Source: a virus (Duplodnaviria > Caudoviricetes). From it: a DNA stretch of 64,000 nt. Shown here in pieces: positions 4,693 to 59,015 of the stretch. The stretch spans positions 1 to 64,000 of the IMG/VR virus record IMGVR_UViG_3300028805_000046; one strand, 5' to 3'. Position 1 is the stretch's first letter, and every line of letters starts with the position of its first letter. The notes under the pieces were generated by a model. It saw only the letters and a list, made by a program, of their open reading frames with translations, searched no databases and was not told the origin of the DNA. The translations under genes were made by a program, and so were the position numbers.

Positions 4693-5847
4693 ATGAATAC
4701 ATTAATCTGTTTGACAAAGACATACAGCTTAGGTGATTTTGACATTTGGTTGTCATATCACCTTTTGCATTTTAATAGAATAGTCATACTTGACAACGAG
4801 TCAGATGTAGACATCAAGCAAGTATGCGATGAACACGAGCAAGTCGAGTACCACTTAATCAAAGGTTGGCCTGACCAGTGGCATCTTTTCTCTGACATTC
4901 TAAACCAGAAGACAGACATCAAGTTCGAGCAAGATGAACTTGTAACATTCCTTGATGATGACGAGTATCTACTTGTAACCAAGCCTGTCAAGGCAAACAC
5001 GATTGACGACTTTTCTCCTGAAGACACGGAGAACATCATGCGTCATCAGTTCCATTGTCTTGACTGCGCATTAATGCCGGAAATCTTGATGGTTTCTTCA
5101 GTGCCTAGAGACAATCGTTCCTGCTTACTTCCATTTTCTTCAATCTACGCTGTAAAGCAGTTGTCTTCTCAAGGAAAGGCTTTCATTCGTTGGCAGCCCG
5201 GATTTGAATATGACTTCTGTAAGGAAGGACCTGAGATCGGTCATGTTCCGTGGATAAACGGAATTAGAATGTCTGACGTAGTCGGGTCAGGCGTCTCCAA
5301 GACAACTTACGGATTGCAGAAATTACCAGATAAAGATGATAACGGGTGCAGAATCTTCTTGTTGCATTATCATATTAAATCTATTGCTGAATGGGAAAAG
5401 AAGATTAAAAGAGGCTCTGCAGCCTCTAAAAATGAACCTGGACACAATGGTTCTTATGATGATGACATTCGTAAAGATCCGAAGTACCCTTGGAACAAGT
5501 CGTGGTTTAGCAAGACAGAAAATCTTCAGTACATGCCGCGTCTTTACACGCTTCTGTCTCAGCTGATTGAGAAACTTTACGGAATTACCCCAAGTTTTCC
5601 TAGAGATGATCTTTCTAGCTTCCAGTCAGTCGCACTTCCGCTTATTAGACGCGTCTATCCAAGTCTTCTTTCTATTCAGACTGTCGGCGTCATACCTATT
5701 CAGAATCCTGCAAGTACAACAAGTTACAGAAATTTGATACAGCAGACTCAGACTAGACTAAATAAGAACCCTTGGAAAACCGTTCTTCCGACAAATGGAA
5801 AGAATAATCAGAAATTGACTTGTTACCCATTTACAAAGAAGAAATAA
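4693..5847 (+). CDS. GT-A fold glycosyltransferase (GT2/GT92-like) with a C-terminal gp23 Gol-like segment
   Basis: WLSYHL, ILDNES, FLDDDEYL (DxD), LLHYHIKS..EW..K..RG motifs; tail VALPLIRRVYPSLLSIQTVGVIPIQNP. Confidence 0.75.
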   Translation: MNTLICLTKTYSLGDFDIWLSYHLLHFNRIVILDNESDVDIKQVCDEHEQVEYHLIKGWPDQWHLFSDILNQKTDIKFEQDELVTFLDDDEYLLVTKPVKANTIDDFSPEDTENIMRHQFHCLDCALMPEILMVSSVPRDNRSCLLPFSSIYAVKQLSSQGKAFIRWQPGFEYDFCKEGPEIGHVPWINGIRMSDVVGSGVSKTTYGLQKLPDKDDNGCRIFLLHYHIKSIAEWEKKIKRGSAASKNEPGHNGSYDDDIRKDPKYPWNKSWFSKTENLQYMPRLYTLLSQLIEKLYGITPSFPRDDLSSFQSVALPLIRRVYPSLLSIQTVGVIPIQNPASTTSYRNLIQQTQTRLNKNPWKTVLPTNGKNNQKLTCYPFTKKK

Positions 5848-26971: not shown

Positions 26972-27040
26972 TGCCACGGAAAAAATTTCCGTGGCTTTTC
27001 TTATTTTGGTATTTACATTTTCGTCAAAAGTTATTATTTT
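26972..27040 (+). promoter_or_regulatory. terminator hairpin then promoter TTTACA-N17-TATTTT
   Basis: GCCACGGAAA/TTTCCGTGGC stem; -35 at 27012, -10 at 27035. Confidence 0.65.
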
Positions 27041-27210: not shown

Positions 27211-27753
27211 ATGAACTTTAATCAGTTAAAGAACTTAACGACCGCTATGTATAAATTCACAACAGTGGTCTTTGAAAAGTCTAAATTAGTAAGCACTTCG
27301 CTTGAGGCGCATGTCGCCGACTACAATTTTCCAAAAGGCACTGCTAACAGTCTTGACTTGGAAGTCCAATTCTATAAGTCTTTGCTTATGAGACGAGCGT
27401 CTTTGAAGATTTCAGTAAGTAATGATTATAGTAGCGGCGACGAACCACAGGTCAAGCTGACATGGGATCGTTTTCCTTCATTCTGCTTTTCTGAAGATGC
27501 TGAAAAGAAAGACAAGCTTCTTTACATTGAGTCTGCGGTCAAAGCACTTGCTATGAATAATTATGACCTGCTTTACACAAAGACTACATACTCAGAATAT
27601 TTTAGCGTAGAAGACGGCTTAGAAAAAGTCATTACGTCTATTAATGACAAGCTTTCGTTAATTGAAGATTTTGAAAGCATTTACCAAAGTAAAATTAAAA
27701 CAATGATACAGCAAATGAATGTTGAGTTTGCTGCTAAACAATTCCAAAAATAA
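27211..27753 (+). CDS. hypothetical protein, C-terminal tag family
   Basis: Ends NVEFAAKQFQK*. Confidence 0.65.
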   Translation: MNFNQLKNLTTAMYKFTTVVFEKSKLVSTSLEAHVADYNFPKGTANSLDLEVQFYKSLLMRRASLKISVSNDYSSGDEPQVKLTWDRFPSFCFSEDAEKKDKLLYIESAVKALAMNNYDLLYTKTTYSEYFSVEDGLEKVITSINDKLSLIEDFESIYQSKIKTMIQQMNVEFAAKQFQK

Positions 27754-27766
27754 ATAAGGAGTAAAC

Positions 27767-28030
27767 ATGAAATCAAATGACCAGAAATTTCAAGAACTTG
27801 TAGATGAACACGTTCATACTGAAGGCTTTAGGGCAAAGACTGAACAGTGCTTAATGAGCCTTGGCGGTTTCGGCTCTTGGGTAGTGCTTTGGCTTGGACT
27901 TTGCTTTTTCCTTCTTGCACCGTGGCCGCTCGGATTCATTATTGGATTTGTGCCTATCATTGCCGCTTCCTGGGTCGTTGATGAATGGGTTGAAATGAAG
28001 AAAAAGTTGAAAGAGGAGAAAGATGAGTAG
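27767..28030 (+). CDS. two-TM membrane protein
   Basis: Hydrophobic hairpin. Confidence 0.6.
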   Translation: MKSNDQKFQELVDEHVHTEGFRAKTEQCLMSLGGFGSWVVLWLGLCFFLLAPWPLGFIIGFVPIIAASWVVDEWVEMKKKLKEEKDE

Positions 28031-28205
28031 ATCTGATATTAAGAGCAAACTTTTGGACAGACTCGAAGACGGACGATTGCTTTGGGAAGATGTCGCCCGT
28101 GAATGTATTGCAGAAATGTCAACTGATGAAGTTGAAGAAATGTGCGATACATGCGAGTATCTTGCGGACGAAGACGAAGGAGAAACAGAAGACTATGACA
28201 GTTGA
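28023..28205 (+). CDS. small acidic hypothetical protein
   Basis: Coupled ORF. Confidence 0.6.
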   Translation: MSRSDIKSKLLDRLEDGRLLWEDVARECIAEMSTDEVEEMCDTCEYLADEDEGETEDYDS

Positions 28206-28386
28206 GCAGTTGATAGAGCATCTTAAGACGCTTGAACCAACTGCAACTGTTCAGTATAAGTCAACTGTCATCTCGACTGACTCTGCTGGATTTATGAAAG
28301 CGCAGCCCGCTTGGGTGGAACTAAATGAAAAGAATGTCTTCAAGACAAGATTTGGTGGAAACGTAATTTTTATTGGAGACAACTGA
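28195..28386 (+). CDS. hypothetical protein
   Basis: MTVEQLIEHL start reassigned to 28195. Confidence 0.6.
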   Translation: MTVEQLIEHLKTLEPTATVQYKSTVISTDSAGFMKAQPAWVELNEKNVFKTRFGGNVIFIGDN

Positions 28387-28402
28387 TGGACACTGATTCG
28401 TA

Positions 28403-28588
28403 ATGAATAAGACAGTCATTAAAAGAATAAATGGCTACTTAACTGGAGCCAAATCTTGGAGTGCTGAAAGGCTCACGGACATTGAAAACCGTGAGTCTTT
28501 ACTTATTAACACAAAAGCAGACGCTGATTTTGTCCGTGCTAGACATCATGCAGAAATTATTTCTGCTGCAAGGAAATGGGAAGAATGA
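28403..28588 (+). CDS. tag-family protein carrying an NrdD glycyl-radical-loop fragment
   Basis: KRINGYLTGAKSWSAERLTDIENR; ends EIISAARKWEE*. Confidence 0.65.
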   Translation: MNKTVIKRINGYLTGAKSWSAERLTDIENRESLLINTKADADFVRARHHAEIISAARKWEE

Positions 28589-28899
28589 ACTTAAATGAAT
28601 ACTTTGAAAGAAATCCTGGAGTTGTAGAAAGGATAAAAGCAGGAAAGTATAGCAGAGAAACATGGGAAAGGGTGTTTCCAGACTTGTCCGCTGTTGCATG
28701 GTCTTCGTTTGTTACTAACTACTTAACTAAAACTGGAAAAGCATTTCTTGCTCCTGTAAGATCTAATGTTCGTTATGTAGTTATGTCTACCAAAGATTAT
28801 GAAGATCAGTTAGCAATCAATCAGAAATTTCAAAGAATGTACATTCAAGAAAAACGAGAAAAAGCATATCGTGAGGCTGCTGCACAATATGACTGTTGA
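28585..28899 (+). CDS. tag-family protein
   Basis: Ends AYREAAAQYDC*. Confidence 0.65.
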   Translation: MNLNEYFERNPGVVERIKAGKYSRETWERVFPDLSAVAWSSFVTNYLTKTGKAFLAPVRSNVRYVVMSTKDYEDQLAINQKFQRMYIQEKREKAYREAAAQYDC

Positions 28900-29158
28900 T
28901 GAGCTTTTATCTTTAGACCCTGATTTTGGTACTGAGGAAGATGCTGCACGCTTCTTAAAATGGAAAGTTCCAACATGGGCAACTTCTATTTCAGGTCATA
29001 AATTGGACTGTCATTGCTTATGTGAATTAAGATTTGGTGAACTTAGTGTTCAAGAATTTCGTGAATTAGAAGAAATGCATCGTAAAATACGTGCTTATTT
29101 TAAAAAGATTGAAAAAGAAACGGAAATTCGTAAGGCTGCTTTAAAGTATGACTGTTGA
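28889..29158 (+). CDS. tag-family protein (paralog of next gene)
   Basis: MTVDEL start; ends EIRKAALKYDC*. Confidence 0.65.
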   Translation: MTVDELLSLDPDFGTEEDAARFLKWKVPTWATSISGHKLDCHCLCELRFGELSVQEFRELEEMHRKIRAYFKKIEKETEIRKAALKYDC

Positions 29159-29408
29159 TGAATTAAGAAAATGGAATGGCATGAAGGATGATAAGAATGA
29201 CACATGGGCTCTGGAAAGAATGCTGAATGAATCTGTTCCTGTTTATGCCAGCCTCATCTCGACAAGAACTTTACATCCTACGACTTTTAGTGGATTGACG
29301 ATAAGAGATCTTAGCTTGGACGAACTGTTAGAATGCCAAAAGATTTTTGATACATTTGCGAAAGAAGTAAGAATAAGGAAAGCAAGCTATGCGTGGGAGA
29401 ACGATTGA
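29148..29408 (+). CDS. tag-family protein
   Basis: MTVDEL start; ends RIRKASYAWEND*. Confidence 0.65.
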   Translation: MTVDELRKWNGMKDDKNDTWALERMLNESVPVYASLISTRTLHPTTFSGLTIRDLSLDELLECQKIFDTFAKEVRIRKASYAWEND

Positions 29409-29640
29409 ATGGGAAGATGAAAAGCAGAAATCTCTTGTACAGAGCATTATAGACGCCTCACGTAAGATTTCAATGAATGCTGCCGGCCGCGGTAATTCAG
29501 GCATTATCTTTTCTCCTTATGTCGCTTCACTCTTTGAGGACGAGTACACCATGATTGATGTTTCTTCAGAAGAATACAAGAAGCAGCAGAAAGAACGACA
29601 TCAGCAAGAAATTAGAAAAGCTGCTGAGGAATGGAAATGA
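29389..29640 (+). CDS. tag-family protein carrying a gp23 major capsid fragment
   Basis: WEDEKQKSLVQSIIDASRKISMNAAGRGNSGIIFSPYVASLFE; ends EIRKAAEEWK*. Confidence 0.65.
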   Translation: MRGRTIEWEDEKQKSLVQSIIDASRKISMNAAGRGNSGIIFSPYVASLFEDEYTMIDVSSEEYKKQQKERHQQEIRKAAEEWK

Positions 29641-29933
29641 TAAATGATCAGTTTGACGCATTCACGAAGACTATAAAAGAGATTAGAAGCAATCTTGGTT
29701 ACATAAATGCTTCGCTTGAAGCAGTAAAATCAAATCTTACTAAATTGAATGATAAAATAGACACTGAAGAAAGTCTGTTAAAAATTCTTAAAGATGAAAT
29801 AACTCAGGAGATTGACAGAGACCTCATAAAGCAAATGATTCTTAATGATCCTGGCTCAAAAGAATGCAAAGCTCTTCAGAAAAAGAATCACATTCAAGAA
29901 ATTAAGGACGCTGCGAAAGAATATGAACTTTAA
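29637..29933 (+). CDS. tag-family protein carrying a gp23 helix fragment
   Basis: IDTEESLLKILKDEITQEIDRDLIKQM; ends EIKDAAKEYEL*. Confidence 0.65.
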   Translation: MINDQFDAFTKTIKEIRSNLGYINASLEAVKSNLTKLNDKIDTEESLLKILKDEITQEIDRDLIKQMILNDPGSKECKALQKKNHIQEIKDAAKEYEL

Positions 29934-30324
29934 AGAACTTACTGAAAAACTTAAAACTGTTCCTGATTTGGTATGCACCACGCTTGGTGGCGAAAATTCC
30001 TGGCAGCAAAAGATTTATTATCTAGCCAAATATTACAATGAAGAAGTCTACATGCCCGTATTCATTGTTGATGAAAGAAGAGAAACAGTTTTCATCAACC
30101 ACTTTCAGTATGAATATAGTTCAATGATGTTTAACGGCAACACTGCTTCTTATACAGACTTTGAAGACTTTTGGATGAATCTTGACGGCTGGATTCACAC
30201 CGTTGATAAAGAAGTCAGCGCAGCTATAGTTGAACAGCAGAATCATCAAAGAATGCTAACTGAACTGAAAAAAGAAAAGAAAGAGTATGCGATTCGTCAT
30301 GCCGCAGTAGAATGGAGCACTTAG
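29923..30324 (+). CDS. tag-family protein
   Basis: Ends AIRHAAVEWST*. Confidence 0.65.
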   Translation: MNFKELTEKLKTVPDLVCTTLGGENSWQQKIYYLAKYYNEEVYMPVFIVDERRETVFINHFQYEYSSMMFNGNTASYTDFEDFWMNLDGWIHTVDKEVSAAIVEQQNHQRMLTELKKEKKEYAIRHAAVEWST

Positions 30325-30377: not shown

Positions 30378-30385
30378 TATAAATA
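30378..30385 (+). promoter_or_regulatory. late promoter TATAAATA upstream of uvsX
   Basis: Exact T4 late consensus; an adjacent TATATT box lies just upstream. Confidence 0.55.
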
Positions 30386-30444: not shown

Positions 30445-31626
30445 ATGGCAAAGAAACAAAGCAACGCATTCATAGCAAAGATCAAGAGAGACAAAGCATT
30501 TGCAGATATTCTTTCTGCAGACAATTTTGAGGAACAGTTCGTTTCCACTAACTGTGGACCTGTAAACGTCCTTTTCTCAGGACGAGTAAAGAATGGTGGT
30601 ATCAAGAAAGGATGTATGGTTACCATCGCTGCTGACTCTAAGCAGGGTAAGTCACTTATCGGTTTGAACCTTCTTGCTGAAGCATATAAGAGCGGCATGT
30701 CTTGTATCGTTATAGATTCCGAAAACGCATTTAACACAAGATTGGCAAGAATGCTTGGTGTTGATACAGACGACATCGTTGTGTTCAAGACTTCCCGTAT
30801 TCCTGAAATTAAACAAATCTTCGCTCGTGTCAATAACGGTTTGACTCGTGCAGAATCTCGTGAAATCTTTATTCTTCTTGACTCCTGGGGTCCGCTTGTT
30901 GAAGAACAAGTTCTTGAAAAAGCAGCTCAGGCATCTTCCGCTGTGAACATGTCTGGTGCAAGATTCAAGAACGAACTTGCAAACGTCATCAACGCTTATG
31001 GTAACACGACTTTCATCGTCAACCACGTCTATGACACAATGGACCCATATTCCCCAACTGGTAAGTTCGCAATTCCTGGTGGTAAGCGTCTTGTATTCAA
31101 CTCTGACGCAATCGTTCTTGCATCATCTTCTGCTAAGGCAAAGGACTCTGACGGCGCCATCTATGGTAAGATCATTACTGCTGCTGTTTCTAAGGGCCGT
31201 AATGCTAAGGAATTTAAGAAGTTGAAGTTCTTGATTGAATTGGACGGCGGTATCAACCCTTACTATGGCTTGCTTGAAGAAGCAATTGAGTCGGGTGTCG
31301 TTGTTAAGCAGAAGAAAGGTGTCTCAAACGTCTTTGTTCGTCCTAAGTATGACACTGATGGACGTGAATGGAAGGAAAAGGAACTTTACTGTGCGAAGTT
31401 CTGGGTTCCTGTCTTCGCTGATGATGCTTTCAATGATTTCCTTGAAAGAAAGTTCTCGTTTGAAGAAACTGTACTTACTTCTTCAAAGGAAAACATCAAC
31501 GATATGATTGCCGCAGGCGACTGGGACAATCTTCCGGATAACTCTTTGACTTCCAAGCAGGAAACTGAAAATCCTGAAATTCCTGATGAAGATGAACCGT
31601 TTACTTTTGACGTTGATAAAGACTAA
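30445..31626 (+). CDS. uvsX: RecA-like recombinase UvsX
   Basis: AADSKQGKS Walker A variant, IDSE, LLDSWG, VNHVY, PGGK. Confidence 0.92.
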   Translation: MAKKQSNAFIAKIKRDKAFADILSADNFEEQFVSTNCGPVNVLFSGRVKNGGIKKGCMVTIAADSKQGKSLIGLNLLAEAYKSGMSCIVIDSENAFNTRLARMLGVDTDDIVVFKTSRIPEIKQIFARVNNGLTRAESREIFILLDSWGPLVEEQVLEKAAQASSAVNMSGARFKNELANVINAYGNTTFIVNHVYDTMDPYSPTGKFAIPGGKRLVFNSDAIVLASSSAKAKDSDGAIYGKIITAAVSKGRNAKEFKKLKFLIELDGGINPYYGLLEEAIESGVVVKQKKGVSNVFVRPKYDTDGREWKEKELYCAKFWVPVFADDAFNDFLERKFSFEETVLTSSKENINDMIAAGDWDNLPDNSLTSKQETENPEIPDEDEPFTFDVDKD

Positions 31627-58209: not shown

Positions 58210-58530
58210 TTGAACTCAAATACAGAAAAATCCTATTTCTGTCTCGGAGTTCAACACAATGAATTGTCGGTTAAGATTAGGTTAGACGTAGAAAAGGTGG
58301 TTCTGCAATAAAAGTCTAAACACCAGCGAAGAAAAGAGTAACGATCTTTTCATACAGCCGTCACACGCATTATGGAATGTAGTCGGAGTACAGGGTGACC
58401 GTCCCGTAAGTCCATAAGTAAGCCGTCTTGCAACGTCATACGGTTCAACAGTTATAAGAAAAAAAGACTGCTGTTACTGGAGACTGTAAGTTCCCCTCTA
58501 GGGCTTACTGTCTCCGGTTTCCAGTTACAG
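58210..58530 (+). ncRNA. candidate structured ncRNA / long structured leader
   Basis: No convincing ORF; at least six stems; preceded by a TAAATT -10-like box. Confidence 0.45.
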
Positions 58531-58553
58531 AAAAAAAGAATTTGATTTTGAAT

Positions 58554-59015
58554 ATGAAACTTTTACCAATGAAAAACAGAGTTTATCGTCTAGATACTGA
58601 CTTAATTCATAGCGCTATTCGTGATGCGATGGCGCATGAAAAATTTGTCGGTAAGAAGTTACGAACTGCACTTGTGTTAAAAGGAAATCCGTTCAGTCTT
58701 TGTTTCTGGAAATTTGCTGTAAGATTTGCAGAAGAATACCGTAGATTCTTTCCTGAAAAGATGGTTGATGAATTTCTCGATGCAGAAGTTGACTATCGTA
58801 CAAATGAAGCCATCGTCTATCAAGTAAAGAAACATGCAGTAAAACATCTTGGAAAGTTTTTCCGTGAAAATCTCGCTGAATATGTTCTTGATTTCGTTAC
58901 GAAGCATGAACAGGAATTTGATAAGACTCCGGAAATGTACAAAGAGTTTATAAATAACTTGAAGAAATTTGCAGAAATAAAAATTGCAGCAGTAGAATAT
59001 TCAGAGGAAACATGA
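58554..59015 (+). CDS. tag-family protein
   Basis: Ends EIKIAAVEYSEET*. Confidence 0.6.
   Translation: MKLLPMKNRVYRLDTDLIHSAIRDAMAHEKFVGKKLRTALVLKGNPFSLCFWKFAVRFAEEYRRFFPEKMVDEFLDAEVDYRTNEAIVYQVKKHAVKHLGKFFRENLAEYVLDFVTKHEQEFDKTPEMYKEFINNLKKFAEIKIAAVEYSEET

Follow-up and report, generated by a model that had tools for sequence, protein, structure and literature searches.

We analyzed the first 64 kb (positions 1 to 64,000, hereafter the window) of the 184,671-bp viral record IMGVR_UViG_3300028805_000046, whose completeness is estimated at 54%. The window comes from a large uncultured T4-like phage, and we focused on two adjacent small open reading frames in it, ORF1 and ORF2, each of which joins a segment resembling the major capsid protein, gp23, to a C-terminal tag that the two have in common. 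Both belong to an array of seven tightly coupled mini-genes carrying this tag, which lies within a larger cluster of small genes ahead of uvsX (Table 1). The order of genes in the region, with DNA polymerase, small genes, uvsX, thymidylate synthase, a gp41-type helicase and gp32, is common with that of relatives represented by contigs of 255-275 kb.

Table 1. Mini-genes, their parts and associated features. Positions refer to the record and, in the two last lines, to the loci of the phages named. aa, amino acids; nt, nucleotides; HMM, hidden Markov model; E, expectation value; dN/dS, ratio of nonsynonymous to synonymous substitution rates; AF2, AlphaFold2.
Feature	Position	Strand	Properties and evidence
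ORF1 mini-gene	29389..29640	+	83 aa; AAGGA Shine-Dalgarno sequence upstream; array member 5
ORF1 core, aa 7-57	29407..29559	+	homologous by profile comparison to own gp23 aa 265-315
ORF1 linker helix and shared C-terminal tag (...HQQEIRKAAEEWK)	29560..29637	+	tag HMM E 8e-12; AF2; dN/dS 0.26
ORF2 mini-gene	29637..29933	+	98 aa; GAGG 7 nt upstream; array member 6
ORF2 variable N-terminal part	29637..29756	+	coiled-coil-type noise matches only; dN/dS 0.69
ORF2 capsid-like helix, aa 41-70	29757..29846	+	homologous by profile comparison to own gp23 aa ~208-240; also matches phrog_14392
ORF2 invariant tail (LNDPGSKEC...) and shared tag (...HIQEIKDAAKEYEL)	29847..29930	+	tag HMM E 5e-12; dN/dS 0.16
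Own gp23 (major capsid gene)	135976-137262, outside window		429 aa; Pfam Gp23 E 1.3e-68
Array of seven tightly coupled mini-genes with common C-terminal tag	28403..30324	+	tag HMM, motif
Array member with NrdD-like head (aa 6-32, ...RINGYLTG...KSW...)	28403..28588	+	HMM, BLASTP, TIGR02487
Third gp23-like piece	5608..5724	+	near C-terminus of 384-aa GT2-like protein (gene 4693-5847)
Cluster of 11 packed small same-strand genes	27211-30324	+	stops and starts overlap
Strong terminator-like hairpin	26973-26995	+	consensus scan; precedes cluster 27211-30324
Sigma-70-like promoter-like site	27012-27040	+	consensus scan; after hairpin
First T4-type late box (TATAAATA) past array	30378..30385	+	just upstream of uvsX (30445-31626)
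phrog_14392 ORF, Klebsiella phage HMGUkp2	L009:2450-2629
phrog_14392 ORF, Escherichia phage wV7	L010:1986-2126

Capsid-like Segments of ORF1 and ORF2

The likely start of ORF2 is the ATG at 29637, which overlaps the stop codon of ORF1 as ATGA and yields a product of 98 aa as in the relatives; the alternative start at 29631 is less likely. The start of ORF1 in turn overlaps the tag of the gene upstream by 20 nt. When HMMs of the two families were compared with the 3023 six-frame segments of the genome, the top match outside the array was for both the phage's own gp23. The ORF1-family model reached it with a whole-sequence E of 7e-7 over two stretches, the next match having an E of 0.58, and the ORF2-family model with an E of 0.0076, the next being at 0.74. 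The reverse search, with an HMM built from 129 diverse gp23 representatives, gave only four places in the whole genome at E < 1e-3: gp23 itself (1.7e-142), the C-terminus of a glycosyltransferase (8e-6), ORF2 (3.3e-5) and ORF1 (4.2e-4). The next match had an E of 6.2, leaving a gap of about four orders of magnitude. Direct alignment of the two family profiles to gp23 with hhalign gave scores of 25.2 and 26.4 (E 9e-5 and 5e-5), whereas reversed alignments scored 7.1 and 2.9, and the highest scores among 40 column shuffles were 11.7 and 10.9. Gp23 was also the family most frequently matched by individual members, namely by 23 of the 25 in the ORF2 family and by 5 of the 27 in the ORF1 family.

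Among 128 gp23 representatives, the more distant one was from the gp23 of the phage itself, the lower it tended to score with the ORF1 family (Spearman -0.50, p 1e-9). Such a trend fits common descent from the gp23 of the phage's own lineage and would not be predicted by convergence; the corresponding trend for the ORF2 family was weaker (Spearman -0.21, p 0.017). By sequence comparison, ORF1 and ORF2 are thus locally homologous to conserved gp23 motifs at a level above chance, and the similarity is to the gp23 of the phage's own lineage. Against the Pfam family PF07068 (Gp23), ORF1 alone scored 13.4 bits (E 0.051, profile positions 215-276) and ORF2 alone 17.8 bits (E 0.0024, profile positions 167-197), short of the curated cut-off of 24.4 bits, and the best-scoring members of the two families were likewise under it. 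When the profiles of both families were searched against solved structures, neither T4 gp23 nor gp24 was reached, and the ORF2 family returned coiled-coil noise only. At the DNA level the array had no match among cultured phages, tblastn with ORF1 likewise found none, and no locus was confirmed when viral contigs were scanned with the ORF2 alignment.

These results bear on the preliminary description of the locus, which had proposed from the letters alone that the two genes carry different pieces of the capsid protein, in reversed order and each with its own start and tag. The pieces were found on both genes with profiles and controls, the one on ORF1 (own gp23 265-315) preceding that on ORF2 (~208-240), and the separate starts and tags and the coordinates of the ORFs proved correct. 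The residues of T4 gp23 that had been used for the comparison fall at the right sites, as T4 gp23 ~343-393 and 278-309 align to the own-gp23 segments matched by ORF1 and ORF2, but the profile searches of solved structures miss T4 gp23 itself. The relationship to the Gp23 profile holds in a similarly divided way: single sequences stay below the Pfam threshold, whereas the family HMMs, the 129-sequence gp23 HMM and hhalign are specific.

The AF2 model of the phage's own gp23 (predicted local distance difference test, pLDDT, 81; predicted template modeling score, pTM, 0.80) matches the T4 gp23 structures 6uzc, 5vf3 and 7vrt at E ~1e-20. In this model, the counterpart of the ORF1 core is a helix-strand-helix element (helix 267-289, strand 296-299, helix 301-309) and that of the ORF2 helix is the longest helix of the protein (216-243); the two segments neighbor each other in gp23, and the gene order is opposite. 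In terms of the HK97 fold, the ORF1 element would be a piece of the A domain and the ORF2 element the "spine" helix of the P domain, both the long helix and the helix-strand-helix presumably being core elements of the fold and not surface patches. The fragments are ~30% identical to own gp23, and the family-invariant positions of ORF1 coincide largely with consensus positions of gp23 (W, L, I, I, G-N, I-I, S-P, V-A-S). The AF2 model of ORF1 has low confidence (pLDDT 62) and is usable for helices only: it shows a helix at 7-30 that matches the gp23 helix, a poorly predicted middle and a tag helix at 61-82 with a pLDDT of ~80-85, the strand region not being confidently folded alone (pLDDT below 50). 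A single co-folding run that paired aa 1-58 of ORF1, which hold the core, with own gp23 was made without controls and gave a score of 0.01, which speaks neither for nor against binding.

Conservation and Divergence

Homologues of each gene form ~30 clusters, with identities of 58-100% for ORF2 and 62-93% for ORF1 (n = 29). Both genes are intact in ~25 cluster representatives each, with in-frame indels only, and in all six relatives whose array DNA was fetched in full (L004, L006 and L015-L018). The mean pairwise dN/dS of ORF1 was 0.37 for the core and 0.26 for the linker and tag; for ORF2 it was 0.69 for the N-terminus, 0.50 for the capsid-like helix and 0.16 for the tail and tag. The adjacent uvsX had a dN/dS of 0.06. 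Judging by this conservation, ORF1 and ORF2 are real, functional and separately translated small proteins under selection.

Measured over seven loci, the divergence of the two genes was high, with dS ~0.43-0.47 and dN ~0.17-0.20 in the array and dS 0.09 and dN 0.005 in the adjacent uvsX. The approximately fivefold higher dS than in uvsX points to recombination with divergent alleles or to a locally raised mutation rate, and the array region is a fast-evolving hotspot that is probably recombining. Such fast evolution is typical of host-interaction genes. In a comparison of three loci, the other small genes of 27211-30324 showed the same raised dS relative to uvsX (30445-31626). The heads of the mini-genes are also exchanged: in one relative (L004; homologue P0029), the N-terminus of ORF2 is replaced by another head with an internal tag-like motif, and in another homologue (P0030) the 28403 gene is fused in frame to the ORF2 helix.

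The Shared Tag and Expression Signals

The shared tag is a C-terminal helix of the form ...EI[RK]xAAxx[WY], followed by one to three residues. An HMM of the last 28 residues retrieved all seven array genes with E values of 1e-10 to 1e-12; since these very tails and their orthologues went into the profile, the values are inflated and not independent. Independent support for the tag comes from the visible motif and from matches outside the array. Among the latter, the HMM found an internal copy in a 307-aa protein outside the window (genome 79262-80182; E 1.8e-5), and a pattern search found tag-like ends at 58458-59012 on the plus strand of the window and at 166459-166905 and 166872-167411 outside it, with a further, weak one on 27211-27753. 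As far as such matches tell, the motif occurs across the genome and not just in the array. We considered whether the tag could be a mere by-product of overlapping ribosome-binding sites and start codons and rejected this as the sole cause: the codons differ between tags, and the last gene of the array is tagged without having an overlapping gene downstream.

The cluster is preceded by a terminator-like hairpin and then a promoter-like site, and the consensus scan found no TATAAATA late box inside 27211-30324. With these signals ahead of the cluster and the late box absent inside it, transcription at an early or middle stage is plausible.

Segments Copied from Other Parts of the Genome

The array is not limited to capsid-like heads. 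The head of the 28403 gene is a copy of the very C-terminal end of NrdD from the same phage, the glycyl-radical motif included: the family HMM found own NrdD in the genome with an E of 0.0065 and BLASTP with an E of 1e-5, and the orthologue in L004 matched TIGR02487 at positions 552-580 of 581 (E 0.02). A head derived from NrdD means that the system is not capsid-specific, and from these matches the class appears to copy conserved cores of several essential proteins.

Small stand-alone copies of one piece of a large enzyme, comparable to what the 28403 gene is to NrdD, have reportedly been described by Wagner et al. (2001) as autonomous glycyl-radical "spare part" proteins, GrcA/YfiD in Escherichia coli and Y06I in phage T4. 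The product of 28403-28588 may itself be a spare part of the GrcA kind, or else a mimic directed at the activase NrdG. ORF1 and ORF2, in contrast to GrcA/YfiD and Y06I, are without a catalytic motif, and a spare-part role for capsid cores is hard to imagine.

The third gp23-like piece in the window, the glycosyltransferase tail found in the reverse search, aligns to own gp23 73-135 (BLASTP E 8e-7). Its conserved core, ~73-110 of own gp23, corresponds to T4 gp23 ~86-123 and so presumably overlaps the Gol region (aa 93-122). One cluster of homologues, 91% identical, was found for the tailed GT2-like protein, and a profile search of solved structures with the tail found nothing.

Comparison with Known Systems

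With the gp23/gp24 family (PF07068; HK97 fold; PDB 6uzc, 5vf3, 7vrt and 1yue), ORF1 and ORF2 have in common cores that are homologous, by the profile evidence, to two neighboring conserved elements. The complete HK97-type fold spans ~400 or more residues with an N-arm, an E-loop and P and A domains, whereas the two mini-genes hold only 30-50 copied residues; they also differ from gp23 and gp24 in being separate genes in reversed order, in having a C-terminal tag and in scoring below the family threshold. They cannot be shell subunits.

A capsid-like helix of the same kind occurs in cultured phages. ORF2 matched the profile of phrog_14392 with an E of 3.4e-5 at positions 17-41 of 47, bona fide members matching positions 1-47 at E ~1e-25, and the two share the helix motif L-x-x-E-I-T-x-E-I-D-x-E-I. 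The phrog_14392 ORF is unannotated and lies between gene 56 (dCTPase) and soc in cultured T-even-type phages; in T4 itself, this slot is occupied by segF. The T-even ORFs listed in Table 1 match Pfam Gp23 at the same helix (profile positions 171-198; E 0.016 and 0.055). They are unlike ORF2 in having 46-59 aa, a basic N-terminus and no tag.

Among eukaryotes, microProteins and dominant-negative fragments, for example those of the Id and LITTLE ZIPPER types, are small proteins that each stem from a single interaction element of a larger one and act by competitive binding. They are known from transcription-factor families, whereas the mini-genes described here are borne by a phage, and the literature searched contained no phage example of the microProtein type. 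Nothing relevant on decoys or mimics of capsid proteins, or on fragment genes, turned up in the literature searches either. The known reader of nascent or unfolded capsid protein is the EF-Tu/Gol/Lit system: the Gol region of T4 gp23, 29 residues long, binds EF-Tu and triggers Lit, and a review describes it as the most conserved part of gp23 and an EF-Tu-binding peptide (PMC3014915). Capsid proteins are common triggers of defense and are sensed by Avs7 and Dsr1, with EF-Tu being incorporated in the Avs7 complex (PMC13581612). The likeness to the Gol peptide is that a short conserved gp23 segment can be active alone, read by a host factor and a defense protease. Gol is a part of gp23, however, and not a gene of its own, and ORF1 and ORF2 copy other segments of gp23.

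Possible Functions and Origins

Fragment mini-genes with a shared tag apparently form an undescribed class of phage genes. In the interpretation that we favor, ORF1 and ORF2 were copied from a gp23 of their own lineage and then kept under selection, each member of the family joining a short copy of a highly conserved element of an essential protein encoded by the phage itself to the shared C-terminal helix with its aromatic end. Their expression from the replication-gene operon would precede that of the late capsid genes or be independent of it. The proteins would mimic stretches of capsid protein that are accessible only while it is nascent or unfolded, and would compete for or soak up whatever recognizes those stretches. 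The target may be a host sensor or host factor, for example an EF-Tu/Lit-type or chaperone-type reader of nascent gp23, and the shared tag would add a second function that all members have in common, such as oligomerization, partner binding or turnover. The location of the copied elements in the core of the fold would make them poor mimics of the folded capsid surface, and any mimicry would have to be of the nascent or unfolded protein. To competitive mimicry toward a host reader of gp23 segments, with the tag giving a shared second function, we would assign a probability of about 0.45.

Several observations weigh against this interpretation. The Pfam scores of the two single sequences are sub-threshold, the ORF2 helix is short and amphipathic and has coiled-coil noise matches of similar E value, and a dN/dS of 0.4-0.5 over 30-50 codons indicates only moderate constraint. 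The timing of expression is read only from consensus scans for promoters and terminators. The heads may have been taken up simply because they were existing helices able to fold, and, given the NrdD head, capsid sensors cannot account for the array as a whole. The latter point also affects the decoy function first suggested for the two genes, which in its capsid-only form is weakened by the neighbor with an NrdD fragment and by the presence of the tag on other proteins. A wider version would have arrays of tagged peptides from conserved, normally buried cores (capsid, NrdD and others) serve as early-made decoys for host immunity or for readers of nascent proteins, as a general "self-mimicry" counter-defense with a remnant near soc in T-even phages; this we regard as an unlikely generalization.

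If competitive mimicry is true, the mini-genes would be a new kind of phage gene encoding self-derived peptide decoys or regulators, the decoys being built from the unchangeable motifs of essential proteins, those that host immunity is expected to read. The occurrence of a capsid-helix ORF in cultured T-even phages makes the idea testable in E. coli by standard genetics. Regardless of function, the array illustrates a route of gene birth in hyperplastic regions of phages through the capture of fragments and the addition of a shared tag.

Such capture could also be the whole explanation, with pieces of other genes serving as raw material in a hyperplastic region, the tag being the functional part and the capsid ancestry incidental. 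This fits the fact that constraint is strongest on the tag (dN/dS 0.16-0.26), which is present on many otherwise unrelated proteins, that heads are swapped or deleted in relatives (P0029, P0030), that the copy number of the array varies, and that the heads come from at least two unrelated parents, gp23 and NrdD. What makes it doubtful is that precisely the most conserved motifs of the parents have been retained: the invariant residues of the mini-genes are the consensus residues of the parents, which suggests selection on the parent-like features as such. Distant T-even phages, moreover, retain a similar spine-helix motif in small ORFs that are untagged.

The fragments might instead interfere with or regulate assembly by binding capsid folding or assembly intermediates through strand or helix complementation, either poisoning the heads of a co-infecting related phage (exclusion) or tuning the phage's own assembly. 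In the HK97 fold the copied pieces would be core elements that pack inside the folded protein, of a kind that can be dominant-negative, the low pLDDT of the ORF1 strand region is expected of a strand that needs a partner sheet, and ORF1 is closest to the gp23 of its own lineage. We nevertheless consider this role improbable. At ~30% identity to own gp23, a poison for relatives would be expected to hit the phage itself; the genes lie in a replication-gene operon without a late promoter and are probably expressed before any capsid protein exists; and the NrdD-derived head is unfit for a capsid-specific role.

A resemblance to gp23 through chance or through convergence of short amphipathic helices is very improbable, in spite of the scores under the Pfam cut-off, the coiled-coil matches of ORF2 at similar E values and the failure to reach T4 gp23. 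Two adjacent genes match two neighboring segments of gp23, the gap in the genome-wide census is wide, shuffles and reversals score far lower, and Gp23 is the most-matched family for both genes, though just by a minority of members for ORF1. The scores of ORF1 also track the phylogenetic distance from own gp23, and for this gene the profile evidence largely refutes a chance origin. That the genes are decaying remnants of a duplicated capsid gene is scarcely credible: although 2 of the 29 ORF1 homologues look frameshifted (P0058 and P0059), the separate starts with ribosome-binding sites, the translational coupling, the tags, the order reversed relative to gp23 and a dN/dS below 1 (0.37-0.50 in the cores) argue against pseudogene debris, and the conservation of the predicted ORFs with in-frame indels in dozens of relatives refutes it, as the preliminary description had anticipated.

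Other Array Members and Variation among Relatives

The parents of the other four heads of the array were not found with HMMs in the 184-kb record, which is ~54% complete. Two of these members, 28889-29158 and 29148-29408, are paralogous to each other (HMM E ~5e-4), and for neither head could a parent be detected in the 184 kb available; look-ups of two of the four heads in the ESM Atlas returned nothing.

In L004 and L006, the array is located between DNA polymerase and uvsX; in four more relatives it sits directly upstream of uvsX, and its copy number differs among the relatives. An extra paralogue of the 28889/29148 type is present in L004 (L004:5266-5535) and in L018. In L015 and L016, no NrdD-like member is called, and a gap of ~210 nt separates the 63-aa and 104-aa genes. 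In one relative, a 307-aa ORF (L017:5351-6274) whose faint NUMOD3 match makes it possibly a homing endonuclease is inserted just downstream of uvsX; in T4, by comparison, segA separates uvsX from the beta-glucosyltransferase gene.

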